Positions 3,050 to 50,521 of a stretch of DNA of 64,000 nt are shown piece by piece. The translations under genes were made by a program, and so were the position numbers. The notes below the pieces were generated by a model, which saw nothing but the letters and a program-made list of their open reading frames with translations, did no database searches and was not told the origin of the DNA. The stretch is from a plasmid, in the sequence record AP025670.1; one strand, given 5' to 3'. The first letter of the stretch is position 1. The number at the start of each line of letters is the position of its first letter.

Positions 3050-3698
3050 AACGGTCGATGGGCACAACGAGCTGGTAGTCAGCTTTTTGTCCAGAATGGT
3101 AAGCCTGAGTGACGAGGAAAAGCAGACAGTATTGTCCTGCCTTCCGGACACCGGCAAACAAACAATCACCCAGCTCTATGAGGCGCTGCGTTCTCAAGGG
3201 CACCAGGATCTTGCAGAGAAAGTCGAACCATACCTCCAGCAGGGGGTGTTTGGGCCGATCTTCGATAACGCCAAGTCCAAGGTGTTCGTTCGGGACGAAG
3301 CGCCTTTTTTCCTCATGGATGAAAATCCTTTGAACTGGGATGACGCTAAAGCATTCAATCGCCTACGTATGAGTACGGCCTGTGTTCTTGGCCGTGGCGG
3401 CTGGACTATCGGTGAGCGCTTTGATGACCGCTTTGATACCGAGGTGGGCGGAACACAGCTTATCGTCACCCAGTCACTCAACGAAAAAGGTGAGATTGAA
3501 GGAGGACTTCCTACCTCGATGTCGCTGAATGACTTTGCTGAGTTCCCTAAACAGCCAAGGCCTCCTCAAATAGTCGATTACCAGGAAGACAAGCGATACA
3601 CGCTTGAGGAAGCGGAAGCTATCCCTGAGCTCGCACCAGTGGTTCAGCGTCTGAAAGAGCGCATCGAAGAGTATGAGGAGAGAAGAGCCCATGATTGA
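3024..3698 (+). CDS. Hypothetical protein, about 224 aa.
   Basis: ATG preceded by GAGGAAGAAG; ORF track 2991..3698. Confidence 0.5.
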   Translation: MDENKLNIETVDGHNELVVSFLSRMVSLSDEEKQTVLSCLPDTGKQTITQLYEALRSQGHQDLAEKVEPYLQQGVFGPIFDNAKSKVFVRDEAPFFLMDENPLNWDDAKAFNRLRMSTACVLGRGGWTIGERFDDRFDTEVGGTQLIVTQSLNEKGEIEGGLPTSMSLNDFAEFPKQPRPPQIVDYQEDKRYTLEEAEAIPELAPVVQRLKERIEEYEERRAHD

Positions 3699-5026: not shown

Positions 5027-6454
5027 ATGTTACCGATCGTCTCCCCCTCCGTAGTAACCAAACAACTTGCGTTCAATCGAGTAGGCGATAAACGCAAGGT
5101 TAGGGTTTCGTCCAACTTTTTGGATGTTATGGGGTTCAAGCCAGGTATGGGCATCGCCGTTGAGCCAGGGGAGGGGATGGGCGGTTTTTCGGTGATCCCG
5201 GCGACCGATGAACTACAGACACACCAGGTTTATCAGCGCCGGTATCAACCAAAGAGTCGCTCCAACAACCCGCTGGAAACCGTTATTGAGTTTTCTGGAC
5301 AAGGGCTCATAGATAAGTGCTTCCCTCGCTATACAGAGCGTTTCCACGTCGAAATGCGAAAAGGCCGAGTAGTCTTCACTCCTGTCGCAAACAGAGCCTT
5401 TGCCATTGCTGATCGGTTCAGAAAAACCAGCCCTTTCCGTGCCTTTGTGGCATTGACTGGCGGGGTAGACATTCATGTTATGGAAGCGCTTGGCTGGAAG
5501 GCTGAGATTGTTTTGGAGCATCGTCCAGTTGAAGCCAGAGACAGAGCATCCGGGCGGAACCTGAGTGAAGTACATGCGCTCAATACGCTGGTTAACAGCT
5601 CCCCGCGTATCCTGCTGAATGAAGACATTCATCACCTGGAGCTGGATCGCCTTGGAGCCTTGCTGGCGGAGTGCCCACCAATTGGTTTGGCCCATTACTC
5701 GTTGGGGTGTGATGACCACTCAAACGCCAAAAGTCCAAGGGACAAAGAGCGTTCTCTTGAAGATCTCTCCACCATGCTCGACATGGTTTACCCGGCCCTA
5801 AAACAGATCGAGGTCGTGAACCCTGCCGTAGTGCTGGTGGAAAACGTCCCGAACTTCAAAGCATCCGGAGCTGGGGCGATGATGGGAACGACACTGCGGC
5901 GGATGGGGTACTTCCTCACTGAGATGGTCTTGAACGGTCTGAATTTCGGCGCTTACCAGGGGCGAGAACGCTATTACATGGTGGCGTCGGTATTCCCTGG
6001 GTTCGTTCCACCGAAACCTGAGCAGAGAGCTGGTGGACGATTGTGGCCGGTGATCGAGAAGCACCTCGGGGATTGTGCAGACGTCACAGCGTTGAAGTCA
6101 ATTCAGGCCAGAGAGTCAACTTCTCGCAGGATGCCTGCGTTCTTGACGAGAGAAAGCACCAGTTGCCCGACCATCCTCAAGTCTCAGGATCGTGGGGTAA
6201 AGGATGCAGTGTACATCCAAGACGGTGGCCGCATTTACAAGCCATCGGTCGATCTGGTTCAGGAGTTGATGTCGATACCTGATAGCTTTGATGTTTCGTG
6301 GATGGCAAAAGAACAAGCGACAGAAACGCTTGGGCAGAGTGTGGATTACAGATTGCATTCAGCGGTCATGGCCGCAGTTCGGGATCACCTGAATGTGAAT
6401 TGCGGTCGCCATACCGTGGTGCAGCACGGTATCAGAAGTAAGGAAGGGAAATAA
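5027..6454 (+). CDS. AbrB/MazE-like N-terminal domain fused to a C5-cytosine DNA-methyltransferase-like domain. It has ENV (VLVENVPNF) and QxRxR (AYQGRERYYMV) motifs but an atypical motif IV ('ECPPIG' instead of the canonical PCQ).
   Basis: Motifs recognised in the translation. The N-terminal 'VRVSSNFLDVMGFKPGMGIAVEP' resembles a swapped-hairpin AbrB fold. Confidence 0.5.
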   Translation: MLPIVSPSVVTKQLAFNRVGDKRKVRVSSNFLDVMGFKPGMGIAVEPGEGMGGFSVIPATDELQTHQVYQRRYQPKSRSNNPLETVIEFSGQGLIDKCFPRYTERFHVEMRKGRVVFTPVANRAFAIADRFRKTSPFRAFVALTGGVDIHVMEALGWKAEIVLEHRPVEARDRASGRNLSEVHALNTLVNSSPRILLNEDIHHLELDRLGALLAECPPIGLAHYSLGCDDHSNAKSPRDKERSLEDLSTMLDMVYPALKQIEVVNPAVVLVENVPNFKASGAGAMMGTTLRRMGYFLTEMVLNGLNFGAYQGRERYYMVASVFPGFVPPKPEQRAGGRLWPVIEKHLGDCADVTALKSIQARESTSRRMPAFLTRESTSCPTILKSQDRGVKDAVYIQDGGRIYKPSVDLVQELMSIPDSFDVSWMAKEQATETLGQSVDYRLHSAVMAAVRDHLNVNCGRHTVVQHGIRSKEGK

Positions 6455-46286: not shown

Positions 46287-47488
46287 GCGGCACCCCTCAA
46301 TAGCTCAATACGGTCAAACACGGCACGGGAAAAGTCCTCAGCTGCAACACGGGCGGCTCTTAGTGCATCCTGACTGCCTGCATACGTTTGAGGGTTCGCG
46401 CTGATTACGGTGTCAAATGATTCTCCGCAGCGTTCAAACCCCTCCAGACGAGGGAGTGTGGCATCGAGCATATCCGCGCCAAAAACATCTCTCGCAAAAC
46501 TATGTGTCTTTTTGTGGTCATCTTTATTTGAGACTTTCGACATATAGCCGACATTGGCGATAATTTTGCTTGGTAAACCGGAGTCCTCCAGCATCTGAAT
46601 CAGCTCAGGCAGTCGAGTGAGGTATTTCAGTGTTGAGTGGAAATCCACTTGCGGAGGCGGTACAGGGGTCATCAGCATGTGACTTGCCGCTAAAGTATTA
46701 ATCAGGAACGGATCTAAATGAGGGCCGGTATCCACAAAAATGAAATCGTAGTCGTCGCTGATTTTGTCGATGATATTCTCATTTAGAACGTTGTGCTCGT
46801 TCATGCCCGGAAGGTACTGGCTGCATAGAGATGACCAGCGAGAGGCGATAAACGCATCTTCTATTGATGCAGGGATGATATCAACGCCCGGCACGATAGA
46901 AGGCTTAACGAACTCATTCAGAATTTCTTCACGGGTCAGGTCTTTATTGAGCATGGCCTGAGCACTGGAATTATCGACAGTACCGATACTATGGTGATGG
47001 TTCAGGAACATGGTTGAGGACGATTGAGGGTCGAGGTCAATAACAAGGATGCGCAAGTTTTCATGCAGCAAGGTGGGATGGGTACGCATACCATGCGCCA
47101 TCGTCACGGTGGATACGGTTTTTGAAACCCCGCCTTTCAGGTTAACAACAAAAATAACGAACGCTTTTCCGCGCTTTTCCCGGTAGGTTTTTATACCCCG
47201 GTGCGCATAGATATCGCTGATGTTCTGAATGGTCATAGCATACTGAGTGGCAACGCCCCCATGACGTTTTCCGAACTGATAACCATTTGCCTCCATTTCC
47301 TCAACGGCATTATCTACAGCGCGTTTGGTCAGGTGCGGCATTTTTACGACGGCGGCTTTTGAATACGTTTTATAGAACTCCGTCTGGTCAAGCTCATCCC
47401 TTTTAGATTGGATCTGGTCGGTGAGCCAGTTAAGCATGATGCTGGCACGCTTACCCGTGTCCAACAATCTGTCAAAATTATCTGACAT
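46283..47488 (-). CDS. parA: Partition ATPase ParA/SopA (type Ia, long N-terminal HTH extension).
   Basis: Deviant Walker A 'NLKGGVSKTVSTVTMA'. The internal Met (MSDNF) with a GGGG RBS is preferred. Confidence 0.85.
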   Translation of the reverse strand: MSDNFDRLLDTGKRASIMLNWLTDQIQSKRDELDQTEFYKTYSKAAVVKMPHLTKRAVDNAVEEMEANGYQFGKRHGGVATQYAMTIQNISDIYAHRGIKTYREKRGKAFVIFVVNLKGGVSKTVSTVTMAHGMRTHPTLLHENLRILVIDLDPQSSSTMFLNHHHSIGTVDNSSAQAMLNKDLTREEILNEFVKPSIVPGVDIIPASIEDAFIASRWSSLCSQYLPGMNEHNVLNENIIDKISDDYDFIFVDTGPHLDPFLINTLAASHMLMTPVPPPQVDFHSTLKYLTRLPELIQMLEDSGLPSKIIANVGYMSKVSNKDDHKKTHSFARDVFGADMLDATLPRLEGFERCGESFDTVISANPQTYAGSQDALRAARVAAEDFSRAVFDRIELLRGAA

Positions 47489-47587
47489 ATGAACCCCTTT
47501 GATGTGTTGTTTTTTTAGGATTATATCAGAAATATCGACACGTTCTAGTTTTTGCAAAACTACAAACAACATCATACGCAGGAAAAA

Positions 47588-47735
47588 CGGTCATTCAGAT
47601 GTTATACAACCATCATTAGAGGCTTATATAACATCTATTTAAGTGTCATTTGAATGTCATTTGAGTGTCATTAAAGGGTGATATGAGCTTTGTTTGACTG
47701 TCATTCGGATGTCAATTAGACGTCATTCAGACGCA
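47588..47735. repeat. Seven copies of heptamer GTCATT(C/T) in direct orientation upstream of parA. Putative par operator or centromere-like site.
   Basis: GTCATTCAGATG, GTCATTTGAATG, GTCATTTGAGTG, GTCATTAAAGG, GTCATTCGGATG, GTCAATTAGACG, GTCATTCAGACG. Confidence 0.5.
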
Positions 47736-47883
47736 AAATCGAACATCCGTTAAGTGCTATTGATAAGCAAACCATGAGTAATGGTATGATTTTGTTTGCT
47801 ATTTGTTGTGATATGTTCTTTCTGTGTGCTGCTACTTCTATCCCTTGCCTTTCTGGTAAAACTGATATTTTAAGGCGTAGCAT

Positions 47884-48207
47884 TCACGCCTGAAAGAATG
47901 CTTTCTTTAAGAACAGGTAAAAACGTCCACCAGCATCAAACATGCACAGATTTTCTTCAATGAATTTTTCAACTTTTTCCGTTGGTGCGGTCTGATAATG
48001 ACGGATCAGACGCAGCTTATTTGAGAGCGCACGTATGCGGTTTGGGTTATGGCTGATGCGAGAATGAATACTGCTGGTTGCAGCACAGGACACCGCGAGA
48101 GCCAATTCGGTCTTATAGGCAGCTGCTTCACAGGCGACAACCTGAGTACGGGCAGTAGCCTTTGCTGAGGGGCTGAGGTCTTGATAGTAATTAAGTGTAT
48201 CAATCAT
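47884..48207 (-). CDS. Hypothetical 107-aa protein.
   Basis: ORF track. Confidence 0.4.
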   Translation of the reverse strand: MIDTLNYYQDLSPSAKATARTQVVACEAAAYKTELALAVSCAATSSIHSRISHNPNRIRALSNKLRLIRHYQTAPTEKVEKFIEENLCMFDAGGRFYLFLKKAFFQA

Positions 48208-48379
48208 TATTTATTTTTCCTTAACCAGAAACCATGTTGTGACAATCCACTCGGGTATTGCATTTTTTCTTGGATTGATTTTATCACTGGCAAAGAGATG
48301 CCGAAGCGAACAGGGGGATAGAGTGCTTAACAGAGATGGCTGTATGCGTTGTGATGTGACCGGGGATATGTTCAGGCAC

Positions 48380-48503
48380 AAAAAAACCCGATACGGGATC
48401 GGGTTAATTTGTCTCTAAATGAGAGGGATAAAATTATTTCATCTGCAATGTACTGGTGAGGTAATTGCTGATGTTTACTACGTACTGTCAGTACCTGCCA
48501 ACT
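48380..48503 (-). ncRNA. Candidate antisense sRNA (about 120 nt). Minus-strand promoter -35 TTGACA (48534-48539) and -10 TAATCT (48510-48515), with a terminator CCCGATCCCGTATCGGG + T7 at 48380-48403. Its 5' end is complementary to 48695-48713 in the opposite-strand mRNA 5'UTR.
   Basis: Promoter and terminator read from the sequence; 18/19 complementarity to the downstream target. Confidence 0.3.
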
Positions 48504-48787
48504 GATTAAAGATTACCCCCTTATCGTTATTTATGTCAACCGAAATACTTCGAGGGGGGAGCGGGCAAGGTATAATATTCTCAGTAGGCAGATTGTGTAT
48601 CTGCGGTATGTCTCAGGTTTGATGGGTTACGACGCAGGTTTCCATCCCGATCAGAAACAGGTGGTGCTGTCTGATTTGCTTCAACCTGAGAGTGCTGTCA
48701 GTTCCTGCCAACTACAGGTGCGCGGGGTGATGGGAAACCCAAAAGCAATCGCTCCGATGGCACACTCTCCATCAAAGGAGAGAACGA

Positions 48788-48883
48788 GTGGTAACTCTGG
48801 CAACTATCCTGCTGGTTTTGCAGATTGTGCATATCAGCTTGCAGATTATCGTTGTGATCAAGCAACTGACCCGTAGCCGGTAG
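48788..48883 (+). CDS. Candidate type I toxin: 31-aa hydrophobic peptide (M)VTLATILLVLQIVHISLQIIVVIKQLTRSR with a GTG start, at the 3' end of a promoter-to-terminator transcript (-10 TATAAT 48571-48576; terminator 48909-48937).
   Basis: AAGGAG 7 nt upstream of the GTG. Single TM-like helix with a basic C-terminus, a long structured 5'UTR and an intrinsic terminator. Confidence 0.3.
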   Translation: MVTLATILLVLQIVHISLQIIVVIKQLTRSR

Positions 48884-48908
48884 TGATGGTGAAGGGAACT
48901 TGAAACAA

Positions 48909-48937
48909 GGCAGAGGCTGACCCCCTCTGCCTTTTTC
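48909..48937 (+). terminator. Rho-independent terminator (GGCAGAGGctgacccCCTCTGCC + T5), also positioned at the psiA 3' end.
   Basis: Stem-loop plus T-run. Confidence 0.55.
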
Positions 48938-48938
48938 G

Positions 48939-49661
48939 TTATGCCGGTAGTGCCAGAGGAAGGGCTGAGCGACACAGGCACAGGTCGCGCTCGCTAGATG
49001 TGCTTATCACGTAATCCAGTTCATTAAGCAGGTCATACAGGGTATCGCACCAGCGCCAGTCTGTAGGGGCAGAAGCAATCCAGAATGCACCCCACCAGCG
49101 AACCAGTATATTTCTAAGTTCCCAGTCACTGACACCAGCCATTTCTAATTCGTCTCGCCAGTGAGCCAGCCACGCCTTATGTTCCCCCGGCAGGCAAAAT
49201 TGCAAACCTACCCATACCGCACTTTGGGCATTTTCAGACGCAGACATTTCTTCGCGTTTTTGTTTTTGCTCGCGGCGGGCACTCCGGGCAGTGGCGATTT
49301 TCTCCCGATGACTTATTCGCTGATGCTCACCAGACTGGACAGCCGGGAACATAGCAGTGATAACCGCTTTTGACAGGGGGATGATCCACGTTTTCCCCCT
49401 GCTTTCTATTATCGTGTCGATAGCCCGTATGTAGTCGGTCTTTGTGGCTTCTCCCCGGTAGCTGGGGTTATATGCCGGGTCAACCTGTCGCACATGAGCG
49501 GACGTGATCCCCGCCTTCCCCGTGAACTCACGGAAAAAGGCTTTTGCATAGGGATATTCGCCTAGTGAACGCCCGGCTTCTGTCCGGGCTTCAATGTAGG
49601 CAATGGCAGACATGGCGCACTGCTGGAGTCGGTTTAGAGGTACAAGCGCGGTGGAAGCCAT
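48939..49661 (-). CDS. psiA: PsiA-like protein (plasmid SOS inhibition protein A family), 240 aa.
   Basis: Family assignment from recalled PsiA features (about 239 aa, leading-region context). Paralogue of 35420..36151. Confidence 0.5.
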   Translation of the reverse strand: MASTALVPLNRLQQCAMSAIAYIEARTEAGRSLGEYPYAKAFFREFTGKAGITSAHVRQVDPAYNPSYRGEATKTDYIRAIDTIIESRGKTWIIPLSKAVITAMFPAVQSGEHQRISHREKIATARSARREQKQKREEMSASENAQSAVWVGLQFCLPGEHKAWLAHWRDELEMAGVSDWELRNILVRWWGAFWIASAPTDWRWCDTLYDLLNELDYVISTSSERDLCLCRSALPLALPA

Positions 49662-50176
49662 TACGACACCACTGATTCATTTTTGCGGTTAGCAGTGGCA
49701 GATTCCCCGCGCCCTGCTCTGCCGGGCGGAACGTCTGTGGCAAGATGCCCGTGACCTGAGCGCGAAAGCAGTTCCAGAAAGTCAGTGTCAAACGTCGTGT
49801 CTACTCGGATATTTGTTAAAAACTCCAGACGGAAAGTTTCGTTCTTATAATCGCCCGCACATAAAAACCCGCCTTCCTGTATCAAGAATCTTGTCTGGCA
49901 ATTCAGGTCTTGCTGTCCCTCAATGAACAAGGACAGATCCGAAGGGATGTAGACAGGAAGCCCGAGCCACTCAGAAACAAAGCAGCGCCCTTTCAGCCCA
50001 TAGGTATTGTGTGGTCTGTAGAAGAACGGGAATAGCTTTTGTACTAACTCGCCGGTACGCGGGTCGTTAAATGTCAGGAACACACCAAAAGGCCCGGATT
50101 TAAGTACCTCGATAGCCTCCAGCATTGTCAGGGATACAACGTGCTGAGGATAATTCAGGCGGATGGTGTTAGTCAT
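49661..50176 (-). CDS. Hypothetical 171-aa protein in the psiB position (ATGA overlap with psiA). No recognisable PsiB similarity.
   Basis: Operon position only. Confidence 0.35.
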   Translation of the reverse strand: MTNTIRLNYPQHVVSLTMLEAIEVLKSGPFGVFLTFNDPRTGELVQKLFPFFYRPHNTYGLKGRCFVSEWLGLPVYIPSDLSLFIEGQQDLNCQTRFLIQEGGFLCAGDYKNETFRLEFLTNIRVDTTFDTDFLELLSRSGHGHLATDVPPGRAGRGESATANRKNESVVS

Positions 50177-50447
50177 TGCTGATGTGCTCCTGAGTGGTGT
50201 AACTCTTTTTTTCGCCGGGGATTGTATCGAGCTTGTTTAGCTCTGCATCGTAGATAATCGCATCACCGGTCGCTGATTCGTGACTACTGATAAGGCTGTA
50301 GCCGACCGTCTGTAACTCTTCGTACCGATAGTCAGCTATATGCTGTGAGTAGGCTGTTCCCCACGAACTATTGTTGCGCTCTTCAAAGCGTGAGGCGCGG
50401 TAGTGCTGTTTTAGAAATTCGTAATGCTGTTCTGGCGTAACCATCAT
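50169..50447 (-). CDS. Hypothetical 92-aa protein.
   Basis: ORF track; TTCGAC-N17-GATAAT promoter at about 50509. Confidence 0.4.
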   Translation of the reverse strand: MMVTPEQHYEFLKQHYRASRFEERNNSSWGTAYSQHIADYRYEELQTVGYSLISSHESATGDAIIYDAELNKLDTIPGEKKSYTTQEHISND

Positions 50448-50521
50448 TCCCCCCGGAGATGTCTGTTTTATCTGAGATGAATTATCTCACGGGGGTAAAG
50501 GGGGTCGAATAGAGAGGGGAG

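Follow-up and report, generated by a model that had tools for sequence, protein, structure and literature searches.

Type I toxin-antitoxin systems in which the antitoxin is a divergently transcribed small RNA (sRNA), namely tisB, zorO, shoB and dinQ, have been described in E. coli and its close relatives only, without homologues on plasmids (PMC2887945, PMC11264685, PMC5367252). For tisB, the +1 transcript is inactive while the +42 form is active, and the mRNA has a standby site together with a 5' pseudoknot (PMC7708055). The full-length untranslated region (UTR) of zorO is likewise inhibitory, its delta-28 form is active, and the sRNA OrzO binds an exposed region containing GGAGTG (PMC5397157, PMC11264685). 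The tisB, dinQ and zorO systems have been called non-homologous (PMC7708055). Here we describe a module of ~560 bp (positions 48380-48940) within a 64,000-nt stretch of sequence record AP025670.1 (hereafter the window), which is Rts1-like IncT plasmid DNA. An earlier note on this DNA had proposed a type I architecture like that of tisB/istR. All of the elements that it listed are in place, and conservation of the small open reading frame (ORF), conservation of the sRNA gene, and covariation between the sRNA and the 5'UTR support that proposal. We consider it likely that the locus is an unannotated type I toxin-antitoxin module of the divergent-sRNA/standby kind. Judged from its sequence, it appears to represent a new family within the tisB/zorO/dinQ-type class that is related to tisB/istR-1, and that is not described in the literature we found; within that literature it is the first plasmid-borne module of the divergent-sRNA/standby kind.

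The small ORF, its antisense sRNA and their conservation

The predicted toxin ORF (48788-48883, plus strand) starts with GTG, spans 31 codons, and encodes (M)VTLATILLVLQIVHISLQIIVVIKQLTRSR, a peptide with one hydrophobic helix and a basic tail. The Shine-Dalgarno (SD) sequence noted earlier, AAGGAG, lies at 48775-48780, 7 nt before the GTG at 48788. The grand average of hydropathy (GRAVY) of the peptide is 1.43 and its best 19-aa window reaches 2.49, values comparable to those of TisB, ZorO and DinQ. The predicted toxin promoter (48548-48576, plus strand), read from the sequence, combines a -10 hexamer, TATAAT at 48571-48576, with a weak -35 (~CTTCGA); the -10 aligns with TATACT or TATAAT in all plasmid homologues. 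With its start placed from this -10 and its end from the terminator, the predicted toxin mRNA covers 48583-48938 (plus strand, ~355 nt) and has a 5'UTR of ~205 nt, so that the leader proposed earlier stands while its length of 210 nt does not. Downstream of the ORF, a 3'UTR box, GGAACTTGAA (48895-48904), is nearly invariant in all homologues, and an intrinsic terminator (48907-48938), formerly placed at 48909-48937, consists of a stem at 48907-48933 followed by a T run.

The predicted antitoxin sRNA gene lies on the minus strand (48380-48503, ~124 nt) and comprises a single-stranded 5' recognition segment, internal stem-loops and an intrinsic terminator. Its promoter (48510-48539) has a -35 TTGACA (48539-48534), an 18-nt spacer and a -10 TAATCT (48515-48510), and aligned homologues carry TTGAC(G/A/T) and TAATAT/TAAAAT at these positions. 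The earlier description of a near-consensus promoter starting at about 48503 held for the hexamers and spacer; the -10 matches only 3 of 6 consensus positions, and the start is predicted from the hexamers. The terminator (48380-48405), of which 48380-48403 had been recognized, is formed by a stem at 48405-48385 and a U run down to 48380, and is conserved with G-C/A-U exchanges.

The two predicted RNAs are connected by a direct repeat of 22 nt, the copies of which (48482-48503 and 48692-48713) are 91% identical and 210 nt apart. Only the 19 nt at 48695-48713 had previously been reported as a duplication of the sRNA 5' end; this 19-mer has exactly two matches in the 64-kb window, compared to 0.01 expected by chance. 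The upstream copy (48482-48503, minus strand) would form the 5' recognition segment of the sRNA and is complementary to the downstream copy (48692-48713, plus strand), the predicted target site and candidate standby region, 62 nt upstream of the SD. The pairing calculation suggested by the earlier note, performed with RNAduplex, gave -38.7 kcal/mol over the 22 nt for the Rts1 sRNA and target, with 10 bp, one U:U mismatch and 11 bp including one G:U. A hydrophobic protein of <60 aa kept in homologues and an adjacent RNA gene with extended complementarity to the toxin mRNA are generic marks of type I systems, and both were found here.

We searched for homologues by sensitive blastn and tblastn, followed by a pattern scan using one genome per species. 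Over the 700 bp around the module, the DNA is 100% identical to the IncT plasmid Rts1 of Proteus vulgaris (NC_003905.1) as well as to 11 more IncT plasmids, of which most come from Providencia, and another two of this group reach 98.7% identity. At least the 3' half of the module is held by 15 further plasmids of Serratia, Mixta, Pantoea, Erwinia and Klebsiella, with 69-77% DNA identity, and the pattern scan added 61 loci, mostly from Pantoea, many of them on chromosome-sized contigs. The ORF, repeat and promoters are all kept in related plasmids, which is what the earlier note had proposed to check. Specifically, ORF length, frame, GTG start and SD are retained in homologues of ~70% identity: 31 codons, GTG and SD were present in 10 of the 11 fetched plasmid copies, the eleventh (L013) being decayed, and likewise in genome copies of the plasmid type. 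A second, chromosomal subfamily, found mainly in Pantoea (L018-L078, e.g., L036 ~3080-3600 and L049 ~5440-5920), has 30 codons, (V)MELxxLxLDLxRVILQIIVALxQLTGxxx, and residues M1, V22, Q26, L27 and T28 are invariant in both peptide subfamilies.

The order of elements was alike in all aligned modules, running from the minus-strand terminator, stem-loop, upstream repeat copy and sRNA -10/-35 to the directly adjoining toxin -35/-10, a 5'UTR of ~185-227 nt with hairpin and downstream repeat, the SD hairpin, the ORF, the conserved GGAACTTGAA box and the terminator. Homologous sRNA genes were found in the same place in all aligned homologues, with promoter, stem-loop and terminator conserved; of the 15 pairs in the consensus structure of a 25-sequence alignment, 11 displayed compensatory changes. 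In 55 of 61 genome loci, a covariance model (R1) derived from the sRNA alignment detected the sRNA opposite the toxin gene, with scores of 54-96 bits, and it placed the Rts1 sRNA exactly at 48380-48503 on the minus strand. The Rts1 sRNA has an extra small hairpin, TCTCTAAATGAGAG (plus-strand letters, ~48413-48426), and a divergent central stem-loop, both within 48406-48460 (minus strand).

A direct repeat of 15-27 nt at about -290 and -95 from the start codon was found in 53 of 54 analysable genome loci and in 10 of 10 non-IncT plasmid copies. At least five sequence types of this repeat distinguish lineages (CTGTCAGTNCCTGCCAACT, which is that of Rts1, GCTGCTTGTACCTGCTAACT, CTGCATGTATCGACTCG, CAATTTCAGCAAGA and GCTCAGCACTC(T/C)(C/T)CACA), and in each locus both copies match each other; sRNA types in the family are also labelled CTTGTACCTGCTAACT-type and CATGTATCGACTCG-type. 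When the first 40 nt of each sRNA were paired using RNAduplex, energies ranged from -43 to -62 kcal/mol for cognate or same-lineage mRNAs compared to -23 to -42 kcal/mol for those of other lineages. Since complementarity of the mRNA 5' end shifts with target type (see below), the sRNA seed, its target and the mRNA 5' end covary three ways. The two divergent promoters stand back to back, and in several plasmid copies the sRNA -35 is inside a perfect palindrome, TTGACGATATCGTCAA (L004 ~2400-2420), which might be an operator.

Within the IncT group, the two diverged plasmids differ from the window at nine positions of 48380-48940 (48520, 48560, 48561, 48565, 48566, 48569, 48610, 48615 and 48634), all of them in promoter spacers or the proximal 5'UTR, and none of the nine falls in the sRNA, hairpin, target, SD hairpin, ORF, 3' box or terminators.

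The module is situated in the leading region, between the parA side (a 107-aa ORF) and psiA. On plasmids outside the IncT group the homologues are never annotated and their neighbours differ, including parM, umuC, repB, ABC transporters and integrases. Because it occurs in unrelated gene contexts on plasmids, the module appears to behave as a mobile, self-contained unit. Copies in CP4-like islands were found in 31 of 5426 complete E. coli genomes, and four IMG/VR contigs carry the same island-type copy. These copies (L015-L017 from E. coli, L083-L086 from IMG/VR, and L059) keep the 5'UTR target, CTGCTTGTACCTGCTAACT, and the ORF, which in the E. coli islands and viral contigs has an in-frame 9-nt deletion leaving 28 codons. 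The island-type target is identical to the commonest plasmid specificity type, and plasmid sRNAs could in principle act on these copies. Decayed copies were also found (L013, L053 and L057). In L013 (plasmid of Erwinia sp. HDF1-3R, ~2335-2600), the sRNA gene is fused to the target site, both promoters are gone and the ORF is frameshifted; the fusion is what a deletion running from one copy of the direct repeat to the other would leave. A second short direct repeat of the window, 48588-48600 (GCAGATTGTGTAT) and 48820-48832 (GCAGATTGTGCAT), 12/13 identical, joins the mRNA 5' end and the ORF; it was not seen in homologues and is probably due to chance.

Predicted control through the 5'UTR

We next consider the folding of the toxin mRNA. 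A consensus fold of 11 homologous mRNAs contained 69 pairs, 22 of which displayed compensatory changes, and comprised a hairpin around GGUGGUGCUG, a long helix into which the 5' half of the target region is drawn, and a CUCC/GGAG helix formed locally over the SD. The conserved 5'UTR hairpin (48650-48675, plus strand) bears AGGTGGTGCTG at 48659-48669, and its position matches the region of the standby pseudoknot in tisB. A possible pseudoknot between a GGUGG loop and downstream CCACC was noticed by eye only. In the SD-sequestering hairpin (48765-48782, plus strand), the anti-SD CTCTCC (48765-48770) pairs with GGAGAG (48777-48782), and the predicted probability that the SD is unpaired was 0.01-0.40 with or without 5' truncation. 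A CTCC...GGAG hairpin of this kind occurs in tisB, zorO and dinQ as well.

Each mRNA begins with 25-33 nt that are complementary to its own target site; in the window, the segment able to pair in this way is 48583-48615 (plus strand), which predicts self-sequestration in the primary transcript. RNAduplex calculations indicated that mRNA 5' ends prefer target sites of the same class, the classes being Rts1 together with L003-L009 on the one hand and L010-L012 on the other, with L007 weak. In partition function calculations, a thermodynamic prediction, the target site became more accessible when the mRNA was shortened by 20-50 nt at its 5' end, its unpaired probability increasing by >0.1 in 9 of 11 homologues. 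For Rts1, the truncation was predicted to raise this probability from 0.23 to ~0.45 while the SD remained paired. The predicted geometry is that of an sRNA whose 5' end pairs upstream of a sequestered ribosome binding site and beside a structured 5' element.

Taken together, these features suggest the following mechanism, the logic of which is that worked out for tisB (PMC7708055) and zorO (PMC5397157, PMC11264685). The plus-strand promoter (TATAAT 48571-48576) would give rise to an mRNA of ~355 nt whose SD is locked in a local hairpin and whose first ~30 nt fold back on 48692-48713, such that the primary transcript would be translationally inert. Processing of the 5' end, or refolding, may then expose 48692-48713 beside the GGUGGUGCUG hairpin, and the exposed site would permit distant ribosome loading (standby) and synthesis of the GTG-initiated 31-residue membrane peptide. 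The divergent sRNA (~124 nt, 48503 to 48380), presumably constitutive, would pair by its first 22 nt with 48692-48713 and block translation, and target cleavage may follow. The likely payoff would be post-segregational killing or growth arrest of cells that have lost the plasmid, or stabilisation of the leading region; by analogy with plasmid type I systems we expect the role to be post-segregational killing or plasmid stabilisation. In this scheme the transcription starts, processing, standby loading, toxicity and plasmid stabilisation are what we infer, and the conserved anatomy, the conserved ORF, and the covariation of seed, target and mRNA 5' end are what we observed.

Relationship to described type I systems

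The E. coli zor/orz (L079, Nissle), tisB/istR (L080), dinQ/agrAB (L081) and shoB/ohsC loci were fetched for comparison. The motif RGGTGGWGCYG occurred 78 times in 703 kb compared to 5.4 expected occurrences, and 69 of these lay at -139 to -128 from family ORFs. It was also found on the toxin strand at -124 in zorO, -155 in tisB and -127 in dinQ, preceded in each case by TCCTGG, and in tisB it lies where the standby pseudoknot has been placed (PMC7708055). Side by side, the three E. coli systems each have TCCTGG-N(5-9)-ACGGGTGGTGCYGT at -124, -155 and -127, together with a CTCC/GGAG SD hairpin.

Several likenesses connect the module to tisB/istR-1. As in tisB, a divergent sRNA pairs through ~20 nt of its 5' end far upstream of a sequestered SD, the 5' end of the primary transcript is predicted to be able to mask the pairing site, a GGGUGGUGCCG hairpin lies just upstream of that site, and the peptide is a single helix of ~30 aa with the core L-x-(L/I)-I-V-A-x-x-Q-L. 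A LexA box, a feature of tisB, covers the toxin promoter in 44 of 44 chromosomal Pantoea-type modules (CTGT-N8-ACAG, or ACAT in 8). In the two loci scanned, the Pantoea module lies downstream of genes for a periplasmic-binding protein, a DUF2231 protein and a GSDH-family protein, and its surroundings were not syntenic with those of tisB, dinQ or zor in E. coli; the module is probably an SOS-induced analogue of tisB, annotated only as hypothetical protein. Unlike tisB, the Rts1 copy is plasmid-borne, starts with GTG and has no LexA box, and matches neither TisB hidden Markov models (HMMs) nor Rfam. No CTGT-N8-ACAG with at most one mismatch occurs in 48380-48940, on which basis LexA control of the Rts1 copy was rejected, and the plasmid copies all lack a LexA box. 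When 54 family modules were combined into an nhmmer profile, it aligned collinearly with tisB from the LexA box through the hairpin and SD hairpin to the ORF (E=0.0092 and 8.5 bits, with 140 kb searched), and hhalign matched the peptide to TisB with P=8.6e-4 over 17 columns. The earlier note had judged the peptide unlike Hok, Ldr, TisB and Ibs. No TisB or HOK_GEF model matched; as regards TisB itself the judgement needs refining, since the family core LQIIVA(I/L)xQLT resembles LKLIVAALQLL of TisB. Common ancestry with tisB/istR-1 is probable, not proven.

The likeness to zorO/orzO extends to pairing of the sRNA 5' end with the 5'UTR, which for OrzO involves 18 nt of the 174-nt zorO 5'UTR; to GAGTGC, which lies directly before the target or overlaps it here, as GGAGTG lies in the OrzO-bound region of zorO; to the GGGTGGTGCTG motif at -124 and the GCGCTCC..AAGGAG SD hairpin; and to a seed that varies between lineages, which would prevent cross-talk. 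Short blocks shared with zor, namely GGTGGTGCTG, GAGTGC and the GCGCTCC..AAGGAG hairpin, are collinear, while the nhmmer and hhalign comparisons were not significant (ZorO, P=0.036): a plasmid-only nhmmer profile matched zor/orz not significantly and at the terminator only, and the 54-module profile matched nothing there. Unlike the present module, zorO has an ATG start and is chromosomal, in the yehK-yehL region. The Rfam OrzO-P model gave 19.6 bits (E=7.9) here against a gathering threshold of 60, and 101.7 bits for the E. coli Nissle orz control.

With dinQ/agrB the module shares the GTG start of a small membrane toxin, of LexA type in dinQ, as well as divergent, repeat-derived sRNAs (AgrA and AgrB) and the motif GGGTGGTGCCG, at -127 in dinQ. 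Unlike these features, peptide similarity to DinQ was weak and not collinear (P=2.2e-3), and nhmmer was not significant. R1 matched IstR-1 (L080 519-600, minus strand) and both AgrA and AgrB (L081 1062-1145 and 1290-1376, plus strand) at their annotated boundaries, with 21.7-22.5 bits and E values of 0.065-0.096, which hints at a shared sRNA architecture. The module resembles shoB/ohsC in its divergent sRNA with ~19 nt of 5'-end complementarity to a long 5'UTR, and nhmmer gave a weak match on the correct strand to the shoB ORF (E=0.085); unlike the module, shoB lacks RGGTGGWGCYG and encodes a different peptide.

The hok/sok systems, including flm of F, are similar in being plasmid-borne and in having a small membrane toxin, an antisense RNA, an inert primary transcript and a probable plasmid-stabilising role. 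On the F plasmid, the hok-like flm stands beside psiA in the leading region, a similar position. In contrast to the present module, hok/sok has toxins of ~50 aa, a mok leader ORF, a cis-overlapping Sok RNA and activation by 3' processing; here the sRNA is divergent and non-overlapping, no HOK_GEF match was obtained, and the overlapping 93-aa frame is not conserved.

Searches of family databases gave the following results. Neither the family peptides nor the 93-aa ORF had a match in Pfam or NCBIfam. The TisB models TIGR04459 and NF011340 matched none of four plasmid-type and two Pantoea chromosomal-type peptides at E<=10, while TisB itself scored 60-70 bits with them as a control. A scan of 47000-50500 with Rfam at E<=10 yielded no IstR and only chance-level matches to OrzO-P, a Trp leader and a betaproteobacterial sRNA, attributable to the terminator; at gathering thresholds, 8 family loci yielded nothing, the zor/orz control locus being the only match. 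Peptides of the plasmid type were absent from a collection of 15 billion proteins, in which the Pantoea peptide was present only as "hypothetical protein". A phmmer search of the 31-aa peptide against 1.84 billion representatives returned 0 matches, which carries no information given a query of this length and a gene that is not called. Full-text literature searches with the peptide strings returned no relevant paper, and those combining Rts1/IncT with toxin-antitoxin, or Pantoea with type I toxin, found no description of the locus.

The case for homology to tisB, dinQ and zor consists of statistically marginal similarities and a single shared motif of high specificity, and the family cannot be assigned as a member of any of the three. 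Since the motif, nhmmer, hhalign and R1 signals, each weak alone, point the same way together, distant kinship with tisB, dinQ and zor is probable. More tentatively, it is possible that tisB/istR-1, dinQ/agrB, zorO/orzO and the present family belong to one ancient mobile superfamily, of which the plasmid branch, Rts1 included, would have lost LexA control to act as a post-segregational killer in leading regions, and the chromosomal Pantoea branch would be the SOS-controlled counterpart. The marks of such a superfamily would be the 5'UTR element (TCCYGG...RGGUGGWGCYG), the SD hairpin and the repeat-derived sRNA.

Alternative explanations and significance

Several findings weigh against a functional type I module at this locus. 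For every member of the family, the transcripts, the translation and the toxicity of the peptide are predictions from sequence. The toxin -35 of the Rts1 copy (~CTTCGA) matches 2-3 of 6 consensus positions and its sRNA -10 only 3 of 6; because a perfect hexamer is combined with a weak one in both promoters, and a generic promoter scan listed neither promoter, the transcription starts given above are predicted ones. The Rts1 sRNA is an outlier in length (124 nt, compared to 92-99 nt in relatives) and scored only 23.4 bits with R1, although that model included this copy; the low score is explained by its divergent middle and extra hairpin. Imperfect promoters and an atypical sRNA could make the Rts1 copy weaker than other members of the family. 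Neither a divergent sRNA nor a second repeat copy was found near the E. coli island copies, the four IMG/VR copies or L059, so the ORF can be maintained where no antitoxin gene adjoins it, possibly in decayed form. Pairwise differences at codon positions 1, 2 and 3 (363/219/431) are only mildly coding-like, and comprise 222 synonymous versus 485 non-synonymous codon differences. RNA structure could account for part of the ORF's conservation, and the mild signal fits a short hydrophobic ORF that is also inside a structured RNA. Finally, no curated TisB, IstR or OrzO model matched, and the similarity to tisB/istR-1 is statistically marginal.

One alternative is that the gene is a real, sRNA-regulated small membrane protein gene whose product is not a toxin and might instead act as a modulator of the membrane or of a transporter. 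The Pantoea subfamily, with its fixed chromosomal position and its LexA box, fits a stress-response effector equally well, and no toxin family model matches a peptide whose toxicity we predict from its features. Against this stand the double lock on expression (a sequestered SD and self-paired 5' end, plus a dedicated sRNA), which is a hallmark of genes that do harm when their expression leaks; the size, hydrophobicity and charge pattern that the peptide has in common with TisB, ZorO and DinQ, along with the 5'UTR element; and the travel of the module between plasmids as a unit. We regard this explanation as unlikely.

Similarly unlikely is that the family is functional but the Rts1 copy has become inactive or is decaying, with too weak a toxin promoter or a defective sRNA, and is a mere passenger in the IncT backbone. 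The weak toxin -35, the poor sRNA -10, the divergent sRNA middle with its low R1 score, the U:U mismatch in the duplex, and the existence of decayed copies elsewhere (L013, L053 and L057) would all fit such a remnant. However, its ORF, SD, both terminators, hairpin, seed and target are all intact, and the nine IncT substitutions avoid every one of ORF, SD hairpin, terminators, hairpin, seed and target. The duplex (21 bp over 22 nt) is moreover longer than that which is empirically sufficient for OrzO-zorO (PMC11264685).

Current annotation offers a third explanation, in which the true gene is the annotated protein and the 31-codon ORF is incidental. RefSeq lists one gene only between the 107-aa ORF and psiA, an 84-aa "hypothetical protein" at 48622-48876 (plus strand; WP_172691630.1), which is the shorter form of the 93-aa out-of-frame ORF that the earlier note had found to be the only one listed here (WP_011039882.1; the two forms run from 48595 or 48622 to 48876). 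Both forms are out of frame with the 31-codon ORF. PGAP annotates the protein in IncT plasmids and its calls form a 9-member cluster, but all members are from IncT-type plasmids, no Pfam or NCBIfam family matches, and the conserved blocks of the region are RNA elements and the small ORF. Of 10 homologues, only 3 keep this frame open in the part upstream of the small ORF; in the other 7 it is cut to 34-42 codons. Because of these interruptions and the missing family match, the 84-aa protein is most likely a mis-annotation confined to IncT plasmids, and we consider it very improbable that it is the true gene.

A chance constellation of promoter-, terminator- and repeat-like sequences, or a leading-region Frpo/ssi-like element, might be suggested by the location beside psiA and by how common promoter-like hexamers are, but is effectively refuted by the comparative data, as the repeat has an expectation of 0.01, no long inverted repeat is present in the region (the ground on which a Frpo/ssi-like single-strand promoter was rejected), and the architecture recurs in >70 loci with covariation.

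As a probable type I toxin-antitoxin module of the divergent-sRNA/standby kind, the locus has implications for plasmids and for the class as a whole. A conserved plasmid-borne relative of these systems would be a candidate plasmid-addiction function missed entirely by annotation pipelines, and its carriers include clinically relevant IncT and IncF-like plasmids with NDM and OXA carbapenemases. As regards annotation, the 84-aa "hypothetical protein" of IncT plasmids should probably give way to the 31-aa ORF and a non-coding RNA gene. The three-way covariation of seed, target and mRNA 5' end bears directly on the standby/processing model, and the shared 5'UTR motif suggests an RNA element common to tisB, dinQ and zorO. 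If the superfamily proposed above is real, it would provide a plasmid connection for chromosomal trans-type toxins, as well as a natural set of orthogonal seed-target pairs.

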